64,000 nucleotides of DNA from a virus. The stretch covers positions 4,181 to 68,180 of IMG/VR virus record IMGVR_UViG_3300031237_000001. The stretch is one strand, 5' to 3'. Positions 2,369 through 24,034 of this stretch are shown one piece after another (position 1 is the first letter of the stretch; each line of letters opens with the position of its first letter). The notes beneath the pieces were generated by a model. It saw only the letters and a program-made list of their open reading frames with translations, made no database searches and was not told the DNA's origin. Both the position numbers and the translations under genes were made by a program.

Positions 2369-2751
2369 CAAAGGTCAGAAACCTGCCCGTTCAGGTAACC
2401 GCCTGGAAGATCCTCGGTGTTTACGGGAACGATCTCAGAACGCCCGTTCAAAATACGAAGATTAAAAGGGACGAATGGAACGTCGTTCCTACCAAGTTTA
2501 CACTGGAAGCGGAAAATAATAGCGGTCGTTGTTATACAGGCGGTTTTCATGCTTATGCCCGCCTCGAAGACGCCCGCGTTTCCTGGATGCTAGAAGACTG
2601 TCCTGACAGAAAGATCTTCCGTGTCCATCTTCGAGGACTCCTTTGTTTTGGGCGGGGCGACGGCGGCAGTTGTAGCAAGCTTAGCGATCAGTGGGTCGCG
2701 TCCAAGATGCGCGTCGTCCGCGAGGAGCCTGGAGGTGCGTCATGTGTCTAG
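2350..2751 (+). CDS. hypothetical protein, tandem paralog A
   Basis: Shares MCL.RV, KIL, TPV, WNV, GFHAY.RLEDA, LRGL, GDG, QWVA..MRV with 2742..3137. Confidence 0.75.
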   Translation: MCLYRVTKVRNLPVQVTAWKILGVYGNDLRTPVQNTKIKRDEWNVVPTKFTLEAENNSGRCYTGGFHAYARLEDARVSWMLEDCPDRKIFRVHLRGLLCFGRGDGGSCSKLSDQWVASKMRVVREEPGGASCV

Positions 2752-3137
2752 CTCGTGTCGTCACCACGTCCGATCTTCCCGCCTCGGTCGTCGCCTACAA
2801 GATTCTGAGAGAGAGGCCCCGCACAATGGAGCTGGGAGATCTGTATACCCCGGTGCGTTACGAGCCGCTTCACCCTGTTAACTGGAACGTAGCTGCGTGC
2901 GCTAATCAGTTGAGAGCAGAAGACGATAGTGGGATGTATGAAGCAGGCTTCCACGCCTATCAACGCCTGGAGGACGCCGCACGTTCTAGTTGGTCCGGCT
3001 CCGTTTACGAAGTCGAGTTGCGGGGGCTGACTGCCAGCGGTCTCGGAGACGGCACGACACATGGGGAGAAGACGCCGCAGTGGGTGGCCCGGGAAATGCG
3101 CGTCCTCCGCCGCCTGCTGCCTGAGGTGCTCCTGTGA
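2742..3137 (+). CDS. hypothetical protein, tandem paralog B
   Basis: See paralog A; SD GGAGG before ATG 2742. Confidence 0.75.
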   Translation: MCLARVVTTSDLPASVVAYKILRERPRTMELGDLYTPVRYEPLHPVNWNVAACANQLRAEDDSGMYEAGFHAYQRLEDAARSSWSGSVYEVELRGLTASGLGDGTTHGEKTPQWVAREMRVLRRLLPEVLL

Positions 3138-3220
3138 TCTGGCGGGACATAGCAAAGGCCGTCGCCTCCGCCTGCCTCCTCCTCGTCGCCCTCCTCGTCT
3201 GGGCCTGGCGGTCCCGGTGA
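3134..3220 (+). CDS. single-TM micropeptide
   Basis: MIWRDIAKAVASACLLLVALLVWAWRSR; GTGA coupling. Confidence 0.45.
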   Translation: MIWRDIAKAVASACLLLVALLVWAWRSR

Positions 3221-3335
3221 CGCCGGTTCAAGTCTGGAGGATAAAAAAGGGGGACCAGTTGACGGAGAATCAGCGGCGACTTCTACAGATAGAGCGTGTA
3301 ACCTTTCCGCTCCAAGAACCGTCTCAAAGTAGAAG

Positions 3336-3755
3336 ATGAAGAAGAAGTTCTGGACGGCGAAAGAGCAGGCGGTTTATAGAGCCCAGGGAGATCAAGGCCC
3401 CGATCCTGCCGCCGCTCCCTCGTTGCCCCGGGTCTTCCGCGTCTTCTTCTCACAGTTCGAGCCTGTGTACGCCCGCACAGGTAACACCGGCCGCATGTAC
3501 TCCTTCACGTTGACCTGGGAGATCGCGGTCGGTACGAAGCTCCTCGGCATGTCGTTGACCCGCTGCCAGTTCCAGGTTCTCAAGTCTGGTGTGAAGGGGC
3601 CGCTCTACCGCTGGGCGCCGGCCCAGAACGTCAAAGGCTTCGCTCACTTCCACAACAACATACCGTACCCCGATCTGTACACCTACGTCCTCGACGAGTT
3701 GATGAAGACGCCCTATGCTGCCCGTCTTGGACGCCCCAAGGAGGAGGACCTTTAA
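3336..3755 (+). CDS. hypothetical protein
   Basis: 139 aa ORF in operon context. Confidence 0.6.
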   Translation: MKKKFWTAKEQAVYRAQGDQGPDPAAAPSLPRVFRVFFSQFEPVYARTGNTGRMYSFTLTWEIAVGTKLLGMSLTRCQFQVLKSGVKGPLYRWAPAQNVKGFAHFHNNIPYPDLYTYVLDELMKTPYAARLGRPKEEDL

Positions 3756-3759
3756 GAAG

Positions 3760-3945
3760 ATGCGGCGAAACTACGTAGACACGGCGATCCTGGTAGGAAG
3801 TCTCGGCGGCAAGGTTCTGGTAGAAACTGTTGATGGTTTAGACGGGTGGGAACTGGAGCCCGCGAACGCTCGTCGCCTTGCCAAGAGCCTAGTGAAGTTC
3901 GCGGACATCGCCGAGCGCAAGATGCTGCTGGAGGACCTTTCATGA
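3760..3945 (+). CDS. small hypothetical protein
   Basis: SD GGAGG upstream; coupled to the next gene. Confidence 0.5.
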   Translation: MRRNYVDTAILVGSLGGKVLVETVDGLDGWELEPANARRLAKSLVKFADIAERKMLLEDLS

Positions 3946-4418
3946 TTCTGGAAGCTGTACCACCGGACGAGATCTTGCCGCCCGCTGAAGTAGTCAACGA
4001 ACAGCCCGCGATGCGTCAAGTCGCCCGGCGCATCGTCGATCTGGTCGAGCAGACGGGCCTCAGTGAGGAGAAGGCCGCCAGTCAGGTCTGCCCTCTTCCG
4101 TGGGCCTCGTTGATGAAGCGGGACGACTTCGTAACCGCGATCACGGAGATCCGCTCTCGTTACGGTGCCATCAGCGACGAGGAGCAGAGGGAGTTGATAA
4201 AGGCTGGCTGGACGAAGCAGATGGTAGACGGCCTTTTATCCGACGATCCCGTTACGAAGAAGCTGGGACAGGACGCCTCTAAGTTACTCGCCCCTCAAGT
4301 CGGCCTCGCTCAACAGCCGAGCGTCCAGGTCGGCGTTCAGATCGGCGGCGATCTAGCGCCTCTGCTCAAAGATGCCGACGTAGCTTCCGTAGTCAGGGAG
4401 GACGACGCCGATGTCTAA
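3942..4418 (+). CDS. hypothetical protein, possible terminase small subunit
   Basis: N-terminal HTH-like helices, helical middle, beta-rich SVQVGVQI tail; size fits TerS (inference). Confidence 0.35.
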   Translation: MILEAVPPDEILPPAEVVNEQPAMRQVARRIVDLVEQTGLSEEKAASQVCPLPWASLMKRDDFVTAITEIRSRYGAISDEEQRELIKAGWTKQMVDGLLSDDPVTKKLGQDASKLLAPQVGLAQQPSVQVGVQIGGDLAPLLKDADVASVVREDDADV

Positions 4419-11794: not shown

Positions 11795-13003
11795 ATGAGA
11801 TACACACTTTTGACGCTACTCTTGACCGCGTGCTCTTGGGCCGCGTCTACGACCGCCGATTACGTTTCTGTCGTAAGCGGTCAAATCGTTAACATCAGTT
11901 CCAGTACGATTCAGTCCGTGCAGATCAGCGAGTACACACCGACGGGACGGCGTATGACGGGCGTACGAGGCCCTCTGAACTGGCTCCCCGGCGCGGTACT
12001 GCCTCAAGTCTTCGCGCAGAACGCGGTGATTGACAGTCTTGTCCTCGACGATGGCACTGTGATCGGTGATGAGCAGTCGGTGATGGTACGCCGCATCCGC
12101 GGCATGGCTTCTGCGCGGCTCGCCTTGGAGAGTCTCGACGGCGCCGCCCTTCAGAAACAGGCCGCTAAGGAGGAGAGCATCGCCGGCATGGATACTGACT
12201 GGAGCGACCTCTTTCTTACCCGCCTAGCTAAGGAGAAGCTGGCAGCCGCCCCGACGATAGACGCAGCGTCTTCGCCTGAAGTCAACGCTCCGCCCATACC
12301 CGTAATGGTGGAGACTCTCTCGTGTCGGCCCGCAACGGTGCAGATGGGCAACTACTCATCTTGCACCTTTACGCTCAACCAAGTGTTACGAAAGACGACG
12401 AGCTTCGTAACTGGTAGTGACTCACCTTACGCCCGGCCCGTGGTTAACACGGTGAGCGTACCCGCCGGAATAAACGCCGGATCGTTCTCCGTTTTGACGT
12501 ACACGTTGCAGGATGGCGTCGATCAGGTATTGGCAACCATCAGCCTCTTCGGCCCTAACAACGGGGTGCAGACAACCATCCTGGTCAAAAGAGACAATTC
12601 TGGGGTGATAACGAGCGTCCATCTACACGGTACTACTGGTCAGTGTCCCGACTACTTCAATCTTCCGCCGTATGAAGGCTTGGGATGCACCGCCACGAAG
12701 ACCGATCCAGCTCCTGAAGGGTACACTCAGATGGTCTACGCTTCTATGGCCGGGTTCTGCTCGCCGGGCAGCGCAGTTACTCAGGTCTCGGTATACCCTG
12801 AGTCGTGGCATACCTGTTCGACTCCGGTCTTCATTCAGATCAGGGTTGGCCTCCTGGCGGAGTTCCGAGGCGTTTGGTCCGAGGCATCGGCATCGGCTGT
12901 GAACCCGCCCATCGACGGTAGAACCTCGGCCTTTGCGGACTGCTTAGGTAATACTTACGCGGAGCCGTCTTTTGATTACGTCTGCGGCTCCTACAACCCG
13001 TAA
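11795..13003 (+). CDS. predicted secreted protein with Ig-like and Cys-rich domains
   Basis: Signal peptide MRYTLLTLLLTACSWA; beta-rich LSCxPATV...CTFTL...VSVPAG...SFSV segment; several Cys. Confidence 0.7.
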   Translation: MRYTLLTLLLTACSWAASTTADYVSVVSGQIVNISSSTIQSVQISEYTPTGRRMTGVRGPLNWLPGAVLPQVFAQNAVIDSLVLDDGTVIGDEQSVMVRRIRGMASARLALESLDGAALQKQAAKEESIAGMDTDWSDLFLTRLAKEKLAAAPTIDAASSPEVNAPPIPVMVETLSCRPATVQMGNYSSCTFTLNQVLRKTTSFVTGSDSPYARPVVNTVSVPAGINAGSFSVLTYTLQDGVDQVLATISLFGPNNGVQTTILVKRDNSGVITSVHLHGTTGQCPDYFNLPPYEGLGCTATKTDPAPEGYTQMVYASMAGFCSPGSAVTQVSVYPESWHTCSTPVFIQIRVGLLAEFRGVWSEASASAVNPPIDGRTSAFADCLGNTYAEPSFDYVCGSYNP

Positions 13004-13098
13004 CCTTTGCGCAGAGAGAAACGTCTTAACTTGTAGACAGGTAGCCTGATGCTACTTTAACCGTCAACCAAAACTAACCAAAACGCAAGAAGGAGATT

Positions 13099-13716
13099 AT
13101 GCCTCTACCCAGAACAGAAGTGAAGAAGAAGCCGACGCTAGCGTGCCTCGGCTACGTCAAGGATGTCGGCGCCCCCAAGGTCAACGAGACGACCGGGACG
13201 ATCTCAGTGCCAATCGAGATCGAAGCCTTAGAGCAGGGCCAGGGCCGCAAGTACTACTTCTCTTACAAGCAAGAGATGCTCGAACCGGGCTTCTCTCCCG
13301 CCGATGCGGACCCAGGAACGGAGTTCCTCTACCGGAAGAACCTCGCCGTCGAGGATGAGGACAGCTTCGACGAGGGCGATGTTTCCGCGTTGAAAGCGAT
13401 GACCGGCGACGCTTACGAAGAGGTCACCGAGGAGCTCATCAAGGTGAACGGTCGCGGCGCCGAGGGCGTCGCCGAGGTCCTCCGCGAGCGGCTCCTGGCC
13501 CTGGCCGAGGACGGCTTGAAGTTCGGCTACGTCCTTCGACAGCAGTACGACAAGACGGGCGAGACCGACGACGCCGGCAAGGCGATCAAGAAGGCGACCA
13601 AGTGGTACGAGGTCGGTACGTTCGCTATCCCGACCGACGCGGTCCTGGCGCGGTGGGAGAAGCGGGCGAAGAAGGCCAAGGCCGACAAGCCCTTCATTCT
13701 CACCTTTGAGACGTAG
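13099..13716 (+). CDS. probable single-stranded DNA-binding protein
   Basis: Strong SD AAGGAG, acidic, beta-rich N-terminus, near Sak4-like ATPase (function inferred from context). Confidence 0.45.
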   Translation: MPLPRTEVKKKPTLACLGYVKDVGAPKVNETTGTISVPIEIEALEQGQGRKYYFSYKQEMLEPGFSPADADPGTEFLYRKNLAVEDEDSFDEGDVSALKAMTGDAYEEVTEELIKVNGRGAEGVAEVLRERLLALAEDGLKFGYVLRQQYDKTGETDDAGKAIKKATKWYEVGTFAIPTDAVLARWEKRAKKAKADKPFILTFET

Positions 13717-14055
13717 GTTAGCCGTGGTGCCCCGTACTGTCGGGCGGGGTTAAATGGGGTCCCTGGAGCGGGCGCAAGTCCGAATCCTCCAAGCAGTAGG
13801 CGTCGGATTAGACACCCGGCGAAACCCAGCCACTTAACGGAACGGGCTGAGTGCAGCGAGCGGCGAGAGCTGATGGGTGAATCGTGGTCGCTCTACGACC
13901 CCCGCGTCTGTACCATCCGAGAGGATCTAGCCCGATCATTTCTAACTTAACCAGTCAACCACGCATCTTTGCCACGAGAAGTTTAGTCGGGCTGAACTAA
14001 ACGGGTGCTCAGTTAGGTCCTTCAGCGAAGGGCAAACCTGAGCATCAGCCCTCTA
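13717..14055 (+). ncRNA. candidate large structured RNA (three domains, pseudoknots)
   Basis: No credible ORF; GNRA hairpins at 13770-13781, 13861-13872, 13915-13926; loop pairings TACTGT/GCAGTA and GGGCTGA/TCAGCCC. Confidence 0.7.
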
Positions 14056-14063
14056 CCTTAACT

Positions 14064-14258
14064 ATGCATATCATCGAAGCCTTACGGTCGTACCAGTCGA
14101 GGGTTGAAGCGAGACTCAGCGAGAAGACCTCCTGGGGCCGCGTCGAGTTGAAAGCCATCCTTGACGAGGAGTACCGCGCCATCCTGGAGAAAATCGTCGT
14201 GGACAGCATGGAGGCGTACCGAGCCGAGAGGGCCACTTCCGGTCTGGAGGACAGATGA
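14064..14258 (+). CDS. small hypothetical protein
   Basis: LSEKTSWGRVELK motif; coupled to the next gene. Confidence 0.6.
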   Translation: MHIIEALRSYQSRVEARLSEKTSWGRVELKAILDEEYRAILEKIVVDSMEAYRAERATSGLEDR

Positions 14259-14527
14259 AGCAGACGAAAGTTCTATGCGACATATGCGGCCGGGAGAAGG
14301 CGACGACTATCTGGTTCACCATCGACCGCCAGATGGACGCCGCAGGTAGCATGGACGACGTTTGCGAGTCCCTGGACCTGTGCGGCGAACATATGTTCGA
14401 GTGTTACTCGATTCTGCTCCTACGTGAAGAGGACCCGGCGAAGAGAAGGGGCGCGGCCCGCCACGTTTACATGACGTTGCGTGCCCGTACCAAGAACTCC
14501 CCGCTACGTTTGGAAGATCTGTCGTGA
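14255..14527 (+). CDS. small zinc-binding protein
   Basis: CDICG ... DLCGEH; SD GGAGG. Confidence 0.65.
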   Translation: MKQTKVLCDICGREKATTIWFTIDRQMDAAGSMDDVCESLDLCGEHMFECYSILLLREEDPAKRRGAARHVYMTLRARTKNSPLRLEDLS

Positions 14528-15174
14528 GCGTCCGTCGCAAACCTGCTCTGTGCAACCTCTGCCCGTACGCGAAGATCGGGGGCGGCTTCGTCCCCGACTG
14601 GTGGCCGCCGTCCGAACCTCGCCTCGCCGTCTTCCTGGAGGCACCAGGCGGCGACGAAGTCCTTCTCTGTGAACCTATGGTCGGTCGCGCTGGCCGCTTC
14701 TGGGAACGTGCCCTTCTACGCCCCCTCGGTCTCTGCCGCGACGAGGTCATCATCGCCAACTGCTTACGCTGCCGGCCGTGGGGACCGCCGAAGCTGCCGA
14801 ATCAGTTCCCGTCTGGACCGCTCGCCAAGAAGGTCATGCAGATCTGTCGGCAGTACGACTTCTTTCACGGGCAAGCCGGCTCCCTCGTCCCGCGGGGCCT
14901 CGCCGACTGGGACCCGAATCTCTTCGTCATCACGTATCACCCGGCCGCGATCCTGCGTGAACGGGCCTTCTACCGGCTCGCCCTGGCCGACTTCGAGAAG
15001 GCCGGTAGGTACATGGAGAAGGGCTGGCGCGTCTGCGTCCTCTGCGGCGACAAGGCGGCGTCACTCGTCTGGCCTTTGGTTAATAAAGGCGGGGTTGAGG
15101 CTTGGCGCGGTCACGTTTTCACCGCCTCGTTGAAGTCGCCGCGTGCATCTCAATTACCGAGAGGTTTACGATGA
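14524..15174 (+). CDS. uracil-DNA glycosylase family 4-like protein (rearranged C-terminal segments)
   Basis: CxxC, EAPG..E...PMVGRAG, NCLRCRP, TYHPAAILR. Confidence 0.8.
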   Translation: MSVRRKPALCNLCPYAKIGGGFVPDWWPPSEPRLAVFLEAPGGDEVLLCEPMVGRAGRFWERALLRPLGLCRDEVIIANCLRCRPWGPPKLPNQFPSGPLAKKVMQICRQYDFFHGQAGSLVPRGLADWDPNLFVITYHPAAILRERAFYRLALADFEKAGRYMEKGWRVCVLCGDKAASLVWPLVNKGGVEAWRGHVFTASLKSPRASQLPRGLR

Positions 15175-15329
15175 AGGTTACTCTGTGGTTATTCTGGCTC
15201 CTTATTAGAAATAGGGTCGTGGGCAACGTGTCGTCGGCGGGGTACAGCCATCGGGACGAGCAGTACGCCTTGGCCGATAAGATCGTCAGGGAGGTACTGC
15301 GCGATTTGGATGAGGAGTTTGTGAAGTGA
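15171..15329 (+). CDS. small hypothetical protein
   Basis: ATGA coupling, SD GAGG. Confidence 0.45.
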   Translation: MKVTLWLFWLLIRNRVVGNVSSAGYSHRDEQYALADKIVREVLRDLDEEFVK

Positions 15330-15342
15330 CAAGGAGACTGCA

Positions 15343-15531
15343 ATGAGATACATTTTAGCTCTGGACTTTGAACCGCTCGATCATGAACGTCGCAGTTTAG
15401 ATCATGAGAATTGCAAACAGATGCTTCGTATCTTGGAGAGTCTCCTGACGCTTTGGGGCGTCCCTTACTATCTGAGCCCGCCTTTGCGGGAGGACCTCGC
15501 CGAAATCGAAGCCGTCGTGGAGCAGAAGTGA
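15343..15531 (+). CDS. small hypothetical protein
   Basis: SD AAGGAG. Confidence 0.55.
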   Translation: MRYILALDFEPLDHERRSLDHENCKQMLRILESLLTLWGVPYYLSPPLREDLAEIEAVVEQK

Positions 15532-15611
15532 ACGAAGCTCTACATCTCGCCGCTTGGGGTCTCCTCCTCGTCGCCTTGGGCCACGTCATCGGTTCACGGC
15601 GTCAGGGCTGA
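15528..15611 (+). CDS. single-TM micropeptide
   Basis: MNEALHLAAWGLLLVALGHVIGSRRQG; GTGA coupling. Confidence 0.45.
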   Translation: MNEALHLAAWGLLLVALGHVIGSRRQG

Positions 15612-15616
15612 CGAAC

Positions 15617-17737
15617 ATGGCGACTAAGTTCACGAAAATCGCCCTTCCCGAGTTGAACCTGCCGGTTCAAATGAGCCTGCTCGCCGGGCAGACGCCTCGG
15701 GCGGCCCGCGACCTTTACACGCCGTTTCCACACGTCTACCGGAATCTGGAAGCTCTACCCAAAGTCATCCAGGACTGCGTGTCCAAGTCGCCTGGCCTCG
15801 TCGGTATGGACATGGAGTACGATACGTCGAGGGGTAACAAGCCGTCGATCCTCGGCCTCTCCGGGTTGAACTACGCGATCTCGGTACCCTGGTCGGAAGA
15901 GTGCGTCGGCGCGTTACGTACCTGCATCGACCGGGGCCTGAAGCTCGTCGCTTATTCTACGATGTCGGCGGATAAGCCCTGCGTGGACCCCTACGTGAAG
16001 ACGCGACGAGAAGACTGGCTCGACGCGATGCTCAGTCACTACCTCGCTCATCAGGACCTGTGTAAGCGGCCTAGTAAAGAGGAGGATGATGACCCGGGTG
16101 CCCTCGGCTTCATGAACCTGTGGACCGCCTACTCGCTCGTCGGGGACGCGCCGAACTGGAAGCGCTGCCGGGGCATCGATTGTCACGGTCCCTGCCCGTC
16201 TCACTCCGTCTTCGACTACAACGCCGCCGACTCCTGGGCCGGCCTCGTCATCGAGATAGAGAACGGTAAGGCGCTCGACGCCATGGGTGTCCCCGCTTCT
16301 CTACGCGCCGAGATGCTGGAGCTGAGCGACCTCTGCGCGTCGATGGAGCGGCGTGGGATCGGCGTAGACAGAAGCGTCGTCACCTCCTTAGACGCGGAAT
16401 TGAAGTCTCGGCAAGCGGCCCTGTTCAAGTCGAACGAGCCGTTCAACCCGAAGTCTCCCAAGATGGTCGTCGCGTGGTTCAAGGAGCAGGCCCGCCTTCT
16501 CAAGCTGCCTGAGCTAGCCGTTGAGAAGAACGACAAGGAGAGCGTTCAGGAGGCGGTGCTCGCCTTGGGTAAACGCTACCTGATCGACGGCGAGAAGCCT
16601 GCCGAGATCGTCGAGGGCTTACGAGACGTGGCTGATCTACCCGCGCCTGGCCTCGCCCTCTGTGATCTGTACGACTTCAAGGCGGGTGGAAAGGGTCTCA
16701 AAGCTTGGTTCGACGAGCGGTACTTCGGCCGCGATGGCCGTCTTCATCCTCGGTTCATCACTACTGGTGCTTCCACCGGCCGCCTCTCCTCGTCCCGTCC
16801 GAACTGGCACAACGTCGTCAAGGCCGGTTGGGGCCTGAAGATGCGCTCCGCTCTCGTCGCCGCCCCCGGCTACCAGATCCTGCGGGCCGACTGGAAGCAG
16901 CTTGAGTTACGTATGTGTCTCTACCTCTCCGGGTACGATCCCAAGGACATTCAGGGGGACGCCTTCACGTGGCTCGTCGAGCACAGCAGCGGCCAGTTCT
17001 CCCGCGCTTCTAAGTTGACGGGGAAGAAGGAACGGGACTTGGCGAAGATCACGTCGCACGGCACGGACTATCTCATGGGCTTCAAGGTCTTCACGTACGA
17101 CGAGATGGACTCGCTCTCAACGAAGCGGGCCGAGGCAGCGGGCGCCCTGCGTCTCTACCGGGACTGGGAGTACGGCGGTGGCGTCGTCGGGTTCACCGGC
17201 GTTCATCTCGCGGAGATGCTGTTCGGTGACAAGAGCTTCGAGTCCCGCCGTAAAGCCCTGGAGATTCAGGAGGACGTGTACATCGGCGCCTTCTCCTCCA
17301 TTCGTAGATGGCAACGGCAGGTCCTGGCCGAGATCGAAGCCCGTGGCTACGTCAAGTACCCGACCGGCCGTTTCCTGCGTCTCTCCGGGTCCTCTTGGGA
17401 CGAGGAGTCCCGGCCCCGGGCGATGGAAGAGGACGCGAAGATAGGCGTCGCTGCTCTGGGCCAAGGCGTCTCCGCCGATCACGTTCAGGCGGTGATGCTC
17501 CGTTTTCGGCGTGAGCACGGCGACCTAGGAGTACCGACGCTCCAGGTTCACGACGAGCTTCTCTACGAGGTCCCGCTTGAGTGGGGCCGCGAGAAGTGTG
17601 CCGAGTTCATCCGGCCGATGACGGAGGAGACGTGGCGCCTACCCGGCTTCTCGGCGCCGGTTGACGCCGGCCTCGGCGCGTCGTGGCTCGAAGCGATGCA
17701 GGCCGCCGACGACCCGAAAAGGAGACTGCAAGTATGA
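15617..17737 (+). CDS. polA: DNA polymerase family A with 3'-5' exonuclease domain
   Basis: ExoI DMEYD, ExoIII YNAAD, TGRLSSSRPN, motif A ADWKQLELR, motif B RDLAK...Y, motif C QVHDEL. Confidence 0.92.
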   Translation: MATKFTKIALPELNLPVQMSLLAGQTPRAARDLYTPFPHVYRNLEALPKVIQDCVSKSPGLVGMDMEYDTSRGNKPSILGLSGLNYAISVPWSEECVGALRTCIDRGLKLVAYSTMSADKPCVDPYVKTRREDWLDAMLSHYLAHQDLCKRPSKEEDDDPGALGFMNLWTAYSLVGDAPNWKRCRGIDCHGPCPSHSVFDYNAADSWAGLVIEIENGKALDAMGVPASLRAEMLELSDLCASMERRGIGVDRSVVTSLDAELKSRQAALFKSNEPFNPKSPKMVVAWFKEQARLLKLPELAVEKNDKESVQEAVLALGKRYLIDGEKPAEIVEGLRDVADLPAPGLALCDLYDFKAGGKGLKAWFDERYFGRDGRLHPRFITTGASTGRLSSSRPNWHNVVKAGWGLKMRSALVAAPGYQILRADWKQLELRMCLYLSGYDPKDIQGDAFTWLVEHSSGQFSRASKLTGKKERDLAKITSHGTDYLMGFKVFTYDEMDSLSTKRAEAAGALRLYRDWEYGGGVVGFTGVHLAEMLFGDKSFESRRKALEIQEDVYIGAFSSIRRWQRQVLAEIEARGYVKYPTGRFLRLSGSSWDEESRPRAMEEDAKIGVAALGQGVSADHVQAVMLRFRREHGDLGVPTLQVHDELLYEVPLEWGREKCAEFIRPMTEETWRLPGFSAPVDAGLGASWLEAMQAADDPKRRLQV

Positions 17738-23200: not shown

Positions 23201-24034
23201 ACGAGCTACGAAAACGACAACTTCGGCCGCGAGATCGTCGCGCAGAGGCTGGGAGACCTCGTCACGAAGGAACTCCCTAACGAACCGGCTTGGATCGGTC
23301 CTTACCTCCTCCCCCGCGGCGGCCGTCTTCTCTTCGGCGGCGAGACGAAGATCGGTAAGTCGTGGCTCTTACTCGAACTGGCACGCGCTCTATCTCTCGT
23401 TGCTTCCCCTTTCGACTCAGCCCTCTTCCAAACGGAGCCCGGCGCCCGCGTCCTCATCGTCGAGCAGGAGTTAGGTGAGAGAGGCTTGCAGGAGAGGGTG
23501 CGACCTATTTTCGCGGAGCACGAGACGGACGACCGACTCTGGTACGTCAGCCGCGTCCCTCAGTTACAACTGAACTCTATGGAAGGCCGGGACCTGCTCT
23601 GCCGGCTCATCGAGCAGGCGGAAGCGAACGTGCTCATGATCGACCCTATCGGCAAGTGCCATACTTACGACGAGAACTCGAACACGGACATCGCCCGGCT
23701 GTGGGCGCACCTGGAGACGATCCAATGGCAGTACCGGGCCGAGTCCCTAAGCTTAGTAATCTCCCATCACTTCGGGAAGCCGTCTACGGACCCGAAGTAT
23801 CACCGCGACCCCCTGGACATCAACAACTTTCGGGGCGCGTCCAAGTGGATTTCAGACCCGGACACCCTCGTCGCCGTTCAGCGACTCGGCGACATCTCCG
23901 GTCCATACAAGGCGTGGCGTTTGAAGGTAGGCTTCACGTTGAGACACGGCGAGGGCTTGCCGGACATGATTCTGACGGTCAACCGAGATAACGACCGGCG
24001 CGTGCTCTTTGAGAAGTTTGCCTCGGAGACCTAG
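23201..24034 (+). CDS. AAA_25 RecA-family helicase-like ATPase (non-canonical start)
   Basis: In-frame extension of ORF 23486..24034 contains Walker A GGETKIGKS; also VEQE, MIDP, SHHFGK, FRGAS. Confidence 0.8.
   Translation, partial: TSYENDNFGREIVAQRLGDLVTKELPNEPAWIGPYLLPRGGRLLFGGETKIGKSWLLLELARALSLVASPFDSALFQTEPGARVLIVEQELGERGLQERVRPIFAEHETDDRLWYVSRVPQLQLNSMEGRDLLCRLIEQAEANVLMIDPIGKCHTYDENSNTDIARLWAHLETIQWQYRAESLSLVISHHFGKPSTDPKYHRDPLDINNFRGASKWISDPDTLVAVQRLGDISGPYKAWRLKVGFTLRHGEGLPDMILTVNRDNDRRVLFEKFASET

Follow-up and report, generated by a model that had tools for sequence, protein, structure and literature searches.

The subject of this work is a non-coding gap of 347 nucleotides (nt) in the genome of a tailed phage, known from a 68,180-nt virus record of IMG/VR (IMGVR_UViG_3300031237_000001), of which bases 4181-68180 were analysed (64,000 nt in all, called here the window, to which all positions refer unless another locus is named). 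The gap lies behind a gene probably coding for an OB-fold protein and ahead of the genes leading to PolA. A preliminary description of this DNA had taken it for a single, pseudoknotted RNA of about 340 nt made of three domains. The analysis led elsewhere: the first third of the gap holds an expanded copy of a three-way-junction motif that recurs, with covarying pairs, in other phage loci, often next to transfer RNA (tRNA) genes, and the rest of the gap finds no support as structured RNA. The phage itself, of about 60% GC, carries major head, portal, terminase and tail-fibre genes, no RNA polymerase was found among the 32 larger open reading frames (ORFs) of the window that were scanned, and five soil-metagenome DNA runs contain the stretch, no RNA run being listed for it. 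The features in and around the gap are as follows.

13099-13716, + strand: upstream gene of 205 amino acids (aa), the "SSB-like" (single-stranded DNA-binding) gene of the preliminary description, with a strong Shine-Dalgarno site
13717-14063, 347 nt: non-coding gap between the 205-aa gene and two small orphan ORFs
13718-13938, 221 nt, + strand: strain-variable cassette, comprising the motif copy and domain 2, with a positional ambiguity of 2 nt
13724-13833, 110 nt, + strand: expanded copy of the three-way-junction motif (covariance models R3 and R2)
13724-13728 with 13829-13833, + strand: outer helix of the motif copy, GUGGU/GCCAC
13729-13735 with 13744-13750, + strand: hairpin 1 of the motif copy, GCCCCGU/GCGGGGU, 7 base pairs (bp), loop at 13736-13743
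13751-13754, + strand: junction UAAA of the motif copy
13755-13758 with 13825-13828, + strand: hairpin 2 of the motif copy, UGGG/CCCA
13838-13938, + strand: domain 2 of the preliminary description, two GAGA-capped 4-bp hairpins inside CGGGCTG/TAGCCCG and GTGCAG/CTGTAC
13939-14063, + strand: leader of the o64-o90-UDG-PolA genes, common to the deletion variant
14064-14258, + strand: o64, from the ORF listing
14255-14527, + strand: o90, from the ORF listing
14524-15174, + strand: UDG-superfamily gene (Pfam UDG, E 4.5e-6)
15554-17737, 3' of the UDG gene: PolA (Pfam DNA_pol_A, E 5.5e-27)

The motif emerged from a covariance model (R2) built on the first domain of the gap alone (13722-13834) and searched against 271 kb. 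Beyond itself, R2 found three matches, all of them directly after the homologous upstream gene and hence at the syntenic site: one in contig L002 (2124-2176; 24.1 bits, E 0.0013-0.006) and two in contig L006 (1861-1921 and 1954-2014; about 19 bits). The common fold consists of an outer helix GUGGU/GCCAC, a hairpin 1 that opens with a G.U and then a C-G pair, a junction UAAA, and a hairpin 2 that opens with a U-A or C-G pair followed by G-C, and the inner pairs of hairpin 1 are wholly different from copy to copy. A strict pattern of words derived from the window and the relatives L002 and L006 was then run over IMG/VR and returned 31 loci with 25 unique sequences, of which some 15 would be expected at random by a rough estimate. 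In this unselected set, 16 of the 25 sequences could add at least three contiguous pairs to hairpin 1 beyond the two fixed by the pattern, while shuffled sequences gave a mean of 1.82 and a maximum of 7 in 2000 trials. Moreover, the outer helix runs on into the flanks, which the pattern does not constrain, by 2.04 pairs, compared with 0.63 for mismatched flanks. A looser pattern gave mostly random matches and, among those listed, only L050 scored with R2.

A further alignment (A5) was made of 27 copies chosen because their stems had 5 bp or more, with the window left out. In this selected set 86.7% of the cells pair, against 71.3% in shuffles, and the covariation score is 0.359, against 0.110 +/- 0.016 in shuffles, none of 500 being as high, and at most 0.153 in slid controls. 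At four pairs of hairpin 1 each of the four Watson-Crick types occurs and 0-3 cells are unpaired, and the first pair of hairpin 2 (42-79) is U-A in 22 copies and C-G in 5, being unpaired in none. The pairs of the outer helix are invariant in 26-27 of the 27 copies, which is in part fixed by the search pattern. The model R3, derived from this alignment and thus built without the window, recognised 13724-13833 as its sole match in the 64 kb (38.9 bits, E 7e-7), a score that is partly circular because the pattern was itself derived from the window and these relatives; with filters off, the same segment was again the only real match in the gap, and no second copy was detected there. Therefore, the weight of independent evidence lies with the pair counts of the unselected set and with the R2 matches, which owe nothing to the pattern.

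The copy in the window begins 7 nt past the stop codon of the OB-fold gene, on the strand of the flanking genes, and it has the outer helix, the hairpin 1 and the UAAA junction with hairpin 2 of the R3 family. Its size sets it apart, since at 110 nt it exceeds the 50-75 nt of the family, whose longest members outside the window measure 73-75 nt: about 62-66 nt, including a GCAA-capped hairpin at 13765-13790, are inserted in the loop of hairpin 2. The claim that the + strand encodes a novel structured RNA is thus upheld comparatively for 13724-13833, but the span is 110 nt and not 340, and the architecture proposed for it was wrong. As for the novelty, Rfam 15 gave no match in the whole window at the gathering threshold, none at E <= 10 on 13705-13950, and at that permissive level over the window only GP_knot2 (E 5.6, minus strand, 14047-14092), which is junk; no family was matched at the motif positions of L002 and 13 carrier loci either. 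No description of the motif was found in Rfam 15 or in the literature searched, although one may exist elsewhere.

The surroundings of the motif in other genomes are of two main kinds. In 12 of 36 loci, ARAGORN, in agreement with Rfam, places same-strand tRNAs close to the motif, and in such arrays the motif stands 3-12 nt behind tRNA 3' ends. The arrangements, which include one with a transfer-messenger RNA (tmRNA), are these.

L184: tRNA-Glu, 3 nt, motif, 6 nt, tRNA-Leu
L168, L101 and L180 (identical sequence): tRNA-Glu, 5 nt, motif, 7 nt, tmRNA
L170: tRNA-Lys, 3 nt, motif, 8 nt, tRNA-Ser
L165 and L175: motif, 4 nt, tRNA-Leu
L188: tRNA-His, 12 nt, motif
L166, L167 and L072: motif within arrays of 21-24 tRNAs

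At 10 of 19 other loci a same-strand stop codon precedes the motif by 4-39 nt, and most of these loci have another 150-330 nt of non-coding DNA 3' of it. The neighbouring genes, which often belong to replication modules, encode DNA polymerase, ribonucleotide reductase, PhoH, primase/helicase, an SSB and, once, a head protease. The motif always lies on the strand of the neighbouring genes or tRNAs, it is present in exactly one copy in all five phage records counted, and the contigs that carry it range from 31 to 65% GC. None of the 151 bacterial genomes searched contained it. BLAST searches for a cultured phage with the motif gave only tRNA or unrelated matches, and H27, which had been considered as a cultured carrier, was discarded because its DNA looks bacterial.

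In L167, by our own reading, the motif is preceded at a distance of a few nt by a tRNA-like element that has a CCA end and no annotation. This element, of about 80 nt (L167 2068-2146), has an acceptor stem, a T arm and the CCA end, and lacks normal D and anticodon arms. It is 79-86% identical to unannotated sequences located in the tRNA arrays of cultured jumbo and T4-like phages, among them Xanthomonas phage Xoo-sp13 (49933-49996) and Rhizobium phage RHph_I1_18 (15126-15196), where it occupies an unannotated slot between tRNA-Ile and tRNA-Phe. Searching the loci of these two phages with R3 returned nothing.

The second piece of information about the gap came from the comparison of strains, in which contigs of four runs were aligned with 12000-16000; the deletions rest on single contigs of low depth. 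One contig of 151 nt from run X5 (depth 2.1) joins 13717 to 13939, with 1 mismatch in 64 nt on one flank and none in the 84 nt of the other (13939-14022), and runs X3 and X4 match the window across the cassette. Therefore, the 221 nt, with all three of the GNRA hairpins noted in the gap, are present in some genomes and absent from others. The cassette shows no terminal inverted repeats and has no second copy in the genome. A group I intron was rejected: its boundary is incompatible with the three possible registers of the indel, whose last letters are A, T or T, and the element lies past a stop codon and matched nothing in Rfam. A contig of run X5 also skips 15171-15527 of the window (357 nt, from the end of UDG to the start of PolA), which constitutes a second variable cargo site; the same junction holds, in the relative L012, an ORF resembling a cytosine methyltransferase (1958-2920).

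Behind the motif copy, the hairpins at 13838-13938 appear to be specific to this lineage and lack comparative support. Domain 2 is the minimum-free-energy (MFE) fold of the 221 nt taken alone, yet with a z of only -1.42, and the model R1 built on it matched only itself in the 271 kb (next best E 0.63). Of its closing helices, GTGCAG/CTGTAC does reach a pair probability of 0.77 in the ensemble of the full gap, but CGGGCTG/TAGCCCG stays at 0.00-0.02. The leader is somewhat stable (z = -2.56 for 13939-14063, by a script of our own; z = -2.23 for 13939-14070, with 6 of 200 shuffles equally good) because of an imperfect hairpin at 14004-14046, which ends 17 nt before the start codon of o64 and also attains pair probabilities of up to 0.77; the 50-nt window starting at 14001 ranks 77 of 12790 by folding.

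The relatives give a similar picture of the site. Scans of viral_contigs with single proteins (the OB-fold gene, UDG and PolA) yielded no close relatives. A search with PolA gave 35 proteins, and with an alignment of 12 of them it was possible to recruit 10 viral, 3 genome and 14 metagenome loci. In the relatives the OB-fold gene, UDG and PolA follow one another in that order, but the interval that separates the OB-fold gene from UDG is different in each lineage, and this junction is a cargo site filled differently in each relative. In the closest one, L012 (69% and 79% aa identity in the flanking genes, 71-76% nt identity in coding DNA), the interval consists of a gap of about 120 nt with a terminator-like hairpin and a T run, followed by two unrelated ORFs; the motif is absent, and the sequence resembles neither the gap nor o64 nor o90. 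In L002 the interval measures 636 nt and contains tRNA-Ala and tRNA-Tyr, and other relatives have gaps of 40-170 nt or extra ORFs. The gap itself found no match by blastn in the phages collection and nothing significant by blastn, nhmmer, tblastx or blastn-short against 10-36 loci and the masked genome of this phage; two 20-mers from it had no match in viral_contigs, a comparison with four records gave a best E of 0.66, and 401 + 401 bacterial genomes gave only matches of 23-31 nt, at the rate expected by chance.

Several further observations concern these relatives. L012 is a 3.7-kb contig in a metagenome-assembled genome labelled uncultured Streptomycetaceae, which may be a hint of the host or a binning artefact. 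At 2029-2515 of L006 (and in L021) there is a tRNA-like gene split by about 430 nt, with its 5' half from about 2029 and its 3' half, a T arm plus acceptor, at about 2480-2515; the insert has an ORF with HNH-like Cys/His motifs, and the whole may be an intron-bearing tRNA that ARAGORN does not call. A second conserved block, located directly upstream of tRNA-Tyr in L002 (2440-2530) and of UDG in L006 (2516-2620), has an outer helix GAGAC.../...GUCUC and a segment AAUAAACGGGG recalling the junction of the motif, and R3 does not detect it. The UDG match of L002 is interrupted, in the manner of an intein, by about 850 nt within one ORF of 583 aa (2611-4362), and PolA matches are split by about 900 nt in L006 (3542-6544) and by about 440 nt in L009 (6001-8259). 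Several PolA homologues are 945-1029 aa long, one of them with intein and LAGLIDADG Pfam domains.

The genes flanking the gap deserve some comment. The 205-aa product of the upstream gene had no sequence match in Pfam, PHROG or the PDB. Its AlphaFold2 model (predicted local distance difference test, pLDDT, of 88.3) retrieved as top Foldseek rows the OB-fold binders of single-stranded DNA, namely PrgE (E 3.9e-3), then RPA and SSB, although no row reached E 1e-3. The label of the preliminary description is accordingly weakly supported, by predicted structure and not by sequence, and the product is likely to be an OB-fold protein. Shine-Dalgarno sites precede 40 of the 62 genes of this phage, and none was seen upstream of o64, whose codon score (+0.31) is coding-like. 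A search for relatives of o90 yielded, as one candidate, o90 itself.

That the gap is non-coding, as had been proposed, was confirmed in three ways: the excess of GC at third codon positions seen in the flanking genes appears in no frame of 13717-14063, the codon-usage log-odds of seven gap frames or pieces range from -0.03 to -0.58 (genes, +0.24 +/- 0.18), and Pfam and PHROGs found no family in eight six-frame pieces. A decayed gene was rejected in view of these profile searches, and so was stop-codon read-through: the same frame stays open for 77 codons beyond the TAG, but its codon score is -0.30 and the proteins of the relatives stop at the identical residue. A replication origin was also set aside, since the GC skew does not turn here (its maximum, at 23255, coincides with the switch of gene strand) and the windows of lowest GC do not include the gap. 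Between 13000 and 14600 there is one site resembling a sigma-70 promoter, on the minus strand (13124-13096), and no intrinsic terminator, and CTTAAC (or TCTAaCTTAAC) was dismissed as a phage promoter, no genome-wide pattern of it being present.

These observations could be integrated in a model towards which we lean slightly: the gap would be a composite of a motif copy, lineage-specific hairpins and a leader, in which the motif likely marks a processing or 3'-end boundary. A module for RNA processing or 3'-end formation is our best guess for the role of the motif. According to this model, the motif would be co-transcribed with the unit upstream and would fold with its termini paired, so as to mark the boundary; nucleases of tRNA processing, or another endonuclease, might then cut at its borders. 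Such cuts would free the upstream tRNA or messenger RNA (mRNA) with a short trailer, giving it a defined and protected end, and a small RNA of stable fold would be set free as well. An RNA of this strand is consistent with the invariant G.U pairs and with the orientation shared with genes; taken together with the paired termini and the abutting of an upstream 3' end, these features point to an RNA that is recognised by something common to many hosts or that acts by itself. The terminator-like site found in L012 at the same spot, where the motif is absent, fits the need for a transcript boundary behind the gene.

Several facts weigh against this model. Nine of the 25 pattern matches have only 0-2 extra pairs and may be chance; the score of R3 on the window is circular in part, and alignment A5 is a selected set. 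Covariation cannot separate RNA from single-stranded DNA, and the copy in the window shows no excess stability (z about 0 both for 13718-13837 and for the 221 nt). The motif is also dispensable, because it is absent from the records of five of five further relatives and from the variant strain. Finally, the adjacency, taken by itself, is also compatible with a small RNA gene or with a mobile element.

The first of these two notions, that the motif is a stand-alone small RNA gene, either a decoy or a regulator binding a conserved host or phage protein and matured through the processing of tRNA arrays, is in our opinion unlikely, even if a number of features speak for it: the motif fills a tRNA-sized slot between tRNAs with spacers of 3-8 nt, it occurs once per phage record (five of five), and its core is invariant while its arms vary, as in protein-binding RNAs. 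It also shares with the tRNA and tmRNA genes of phage arrays the strand, the spacing of 3-12 nt and the paired 5' and 3' termini. It differs from them in being shorter (50-75 nt) and in lacking a cloverleaf and an anticodon loop, and neither ARAGORN nor the tRNA model of Rfam calls it. A degraded tRNA was likewise excluded for the window, where ARAGORN reports no gene at its default setting or with -ps, and only junk with -ps80 and -ps70. However, the window and 10 of the 19 other loci have no tRNA at all, the motif abutting a protein gene instead, and a host RNA that could have served as the model was not seen in the 151 bacterial genomes.

It may also be asked whether the motif represents a new class of catalytic or nuclease-guiding RNA that sets the 3' ends of tRNAs and early mRNAs in phages of many hosts, which we regard as rather improbable. 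If so, and this extension is equally doubtful, it would be a structurally unrelated counterpart of the theta ribozymes, and the copy in the window would be an expanded and strain-variable version placed behind an OB-fold replication gene. Theta ribozymes are described by Kienbeck et al. 2024 (PMC10879173) as minimal ribozymes of the hepatitis delta virus (HDV) type adjoining phage tRNAs. Judging by that description, they resemble the motif (50-75 nt) in being small RNAs of Caudoviricetes, often a few nt from a tRNA 3' end and otherwise non-coding, in the sense of the nearest gene. They differ from it in fold, theirs being the nested double pseudoknot of HDV with a catalytic C in J4/2 and that of the motif a closed three-way junction, and in source, as the account refers mostly to gut phages and the copies of the motif come from soil and other sources. 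The order expected of an HDV-like fold (the 3' strand of P1 internal, then P1.1, P4, J4/2 and the 3' strand of P2) is not found in the motif, in a comparison threaded by eye and not with the descriptor of those authors; nothing follows its closing strand, because the 5' strand of the motif pairs with its last 5 nt. HDV-type Rfam models matched neither the window nor the motif loci.

A narrower version, in which the motif is a new self-cleaving ribozyme cutting at or near its own 5' edge to free the 3' terminus of the tRNA or mRNA upstream, would be decidedly unlikely. Its attraction is the placement, which is of the same kind as that described for theta ribozymes (PMC10879173): in L184, L168 and L170 a distance of 3-5 nt separates the 5' edge from the 3' end of a tRNA, and in five loci and the window it is 4-12 nt away from a stop codon. 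In addition, the junction core does not vary among phages whose GC ranges from 31 to 65%. It is opposed by the lack of any match to an Rfam ribozyme family, by the covariation of the outer helix into the 5' flank, such that the cut would fall inside a helix, and by L165 and L175, where the motif is upstream of the tRNA and nothing known precedes it. Among known ribozymes, pistol had been invoked in the preliminary description for the topology of domain 1, with the caveat, which proved correct, that the GU cleavage site is missing; the family alignment contains no such junction. Pistol is stated to need both a pseudoknot of 6 bp linking the loop of P1 with the P2-P3 junction and a G-U junction at which it is cleaved (PMC6154101), and what it has in common with the motif, on that description, is a short hairpin followed by an A-rich linker, the association with phages and a similar size. 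It was rejected because complementarity between loops 1 and 2 is at chance level (longest stretch over the 27 copies, 3.56; shuffles, 3.52), UAAA is the only unpaired strand of the junction, and the Rfam Pistol model is not matched.

Alternatively, the fold might act in DNA, as a single-strand hairpin signal or as the terminus of a small mobile element. Such a role would account for the patchy spread of the motif, which is sporadic (present in three lineages, absent from five of five other records), and for the presence or absence of the 221 nt, an indel that begins 1-3 nt past a stop codon; relatives also carry inteins and an HNH-type insert nearby. Nevertheless, we consider it very unlikely: neither terminal inverted repeats nor a second copy exist in this genome, the 802 bacterial genomes gave no match, the strand always follows the neighbouring genes or tRNAs, and the invariant G.U pairs would become A-C mismatches on the other strand.

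There remains the original notion of one RNA spanning the gap. All 16 sequence words quoted for it were found where they had been placed, and three hairpins with a GNRA cap and a stem of 4 bp or more do exist, their loops being located at 13774, 13865 and 13919. They are unusual locally, as dinucleotide shuffles contain 0.21 on average (P(>=3) = 0.0015), but a comparable cluster of three arises in 129 of 300 simulated genomes of this size. The folding energy gave no support, the whole gap having a z of -1.12 (13 of 100 shuffles equally good), with -0.65 on the minus strand, +0.10 and +0.49 for its first 221 nt on the two strands, and an ordinary ensemble diversity. In the ensemble of the full gap, the two proposed pseudoknots and the helix GTTTAGT/ACTAAAC of domain 3 have pair probabilities of 0.00-0.02, like that of CGGGCTG. 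The pseudoknot TACTGT/GCAGTA of domain 1, at 0.00, would join a non-conserved loop to a lineage-specific insertion, and the hairpin of domain 3 with its pseudoknot has no homologues. By our own arithmetic, a stretch with the size and composition of the gap should contain by chance about 5 perfect 7-mer complements, 1.3 repeated 8-mers and 0.7 repeats of 10/11. The hairpins and pseudoknots of the gap other than those of the motif are hence indistinguishable from chance. GOLLD and ROOL are large structured RNAs borne by phages, several hundred nt long, of unknown function and often near tRNA genes; no Rfam family of any kind matches the window or the motif loci. The proposal that the entire 340 nt or so form one pseudoknotted, multi-domain RNA (a large non-coding RNA, tandem ribozyme or cis switch) controlling replication genes is largely refuted and barely credible, for even with three GNRA hairpins within 146 nt and a pairing of GGGCTGA (13844) with TCAGCCC (14045) that joins both halves at 0.72 in the full-length ensemble, it has to face the fold energies, the Rfam results, a variant that drops 221 nt and keeps the remainder, and unrelated sequence at the site in the closest relative.

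With the processing or 3'-end module as the preferred reading, a speculative ribozyme of 340 nt gives way to a defined element of 110 nt plus a spacer without support, and the compact copies of the family offer a short RNA (50-75 nt) amenable to assays of cleavage, of processing by ribonuclease P or Z, and of binding. Small RNAs with a processing role, the theta ribozymes among them, are already known from the tRNA arrays and replication modules of phages, and, if the reading is true, a second, structurally unrelated motif with theta-like placement would widen that picture.

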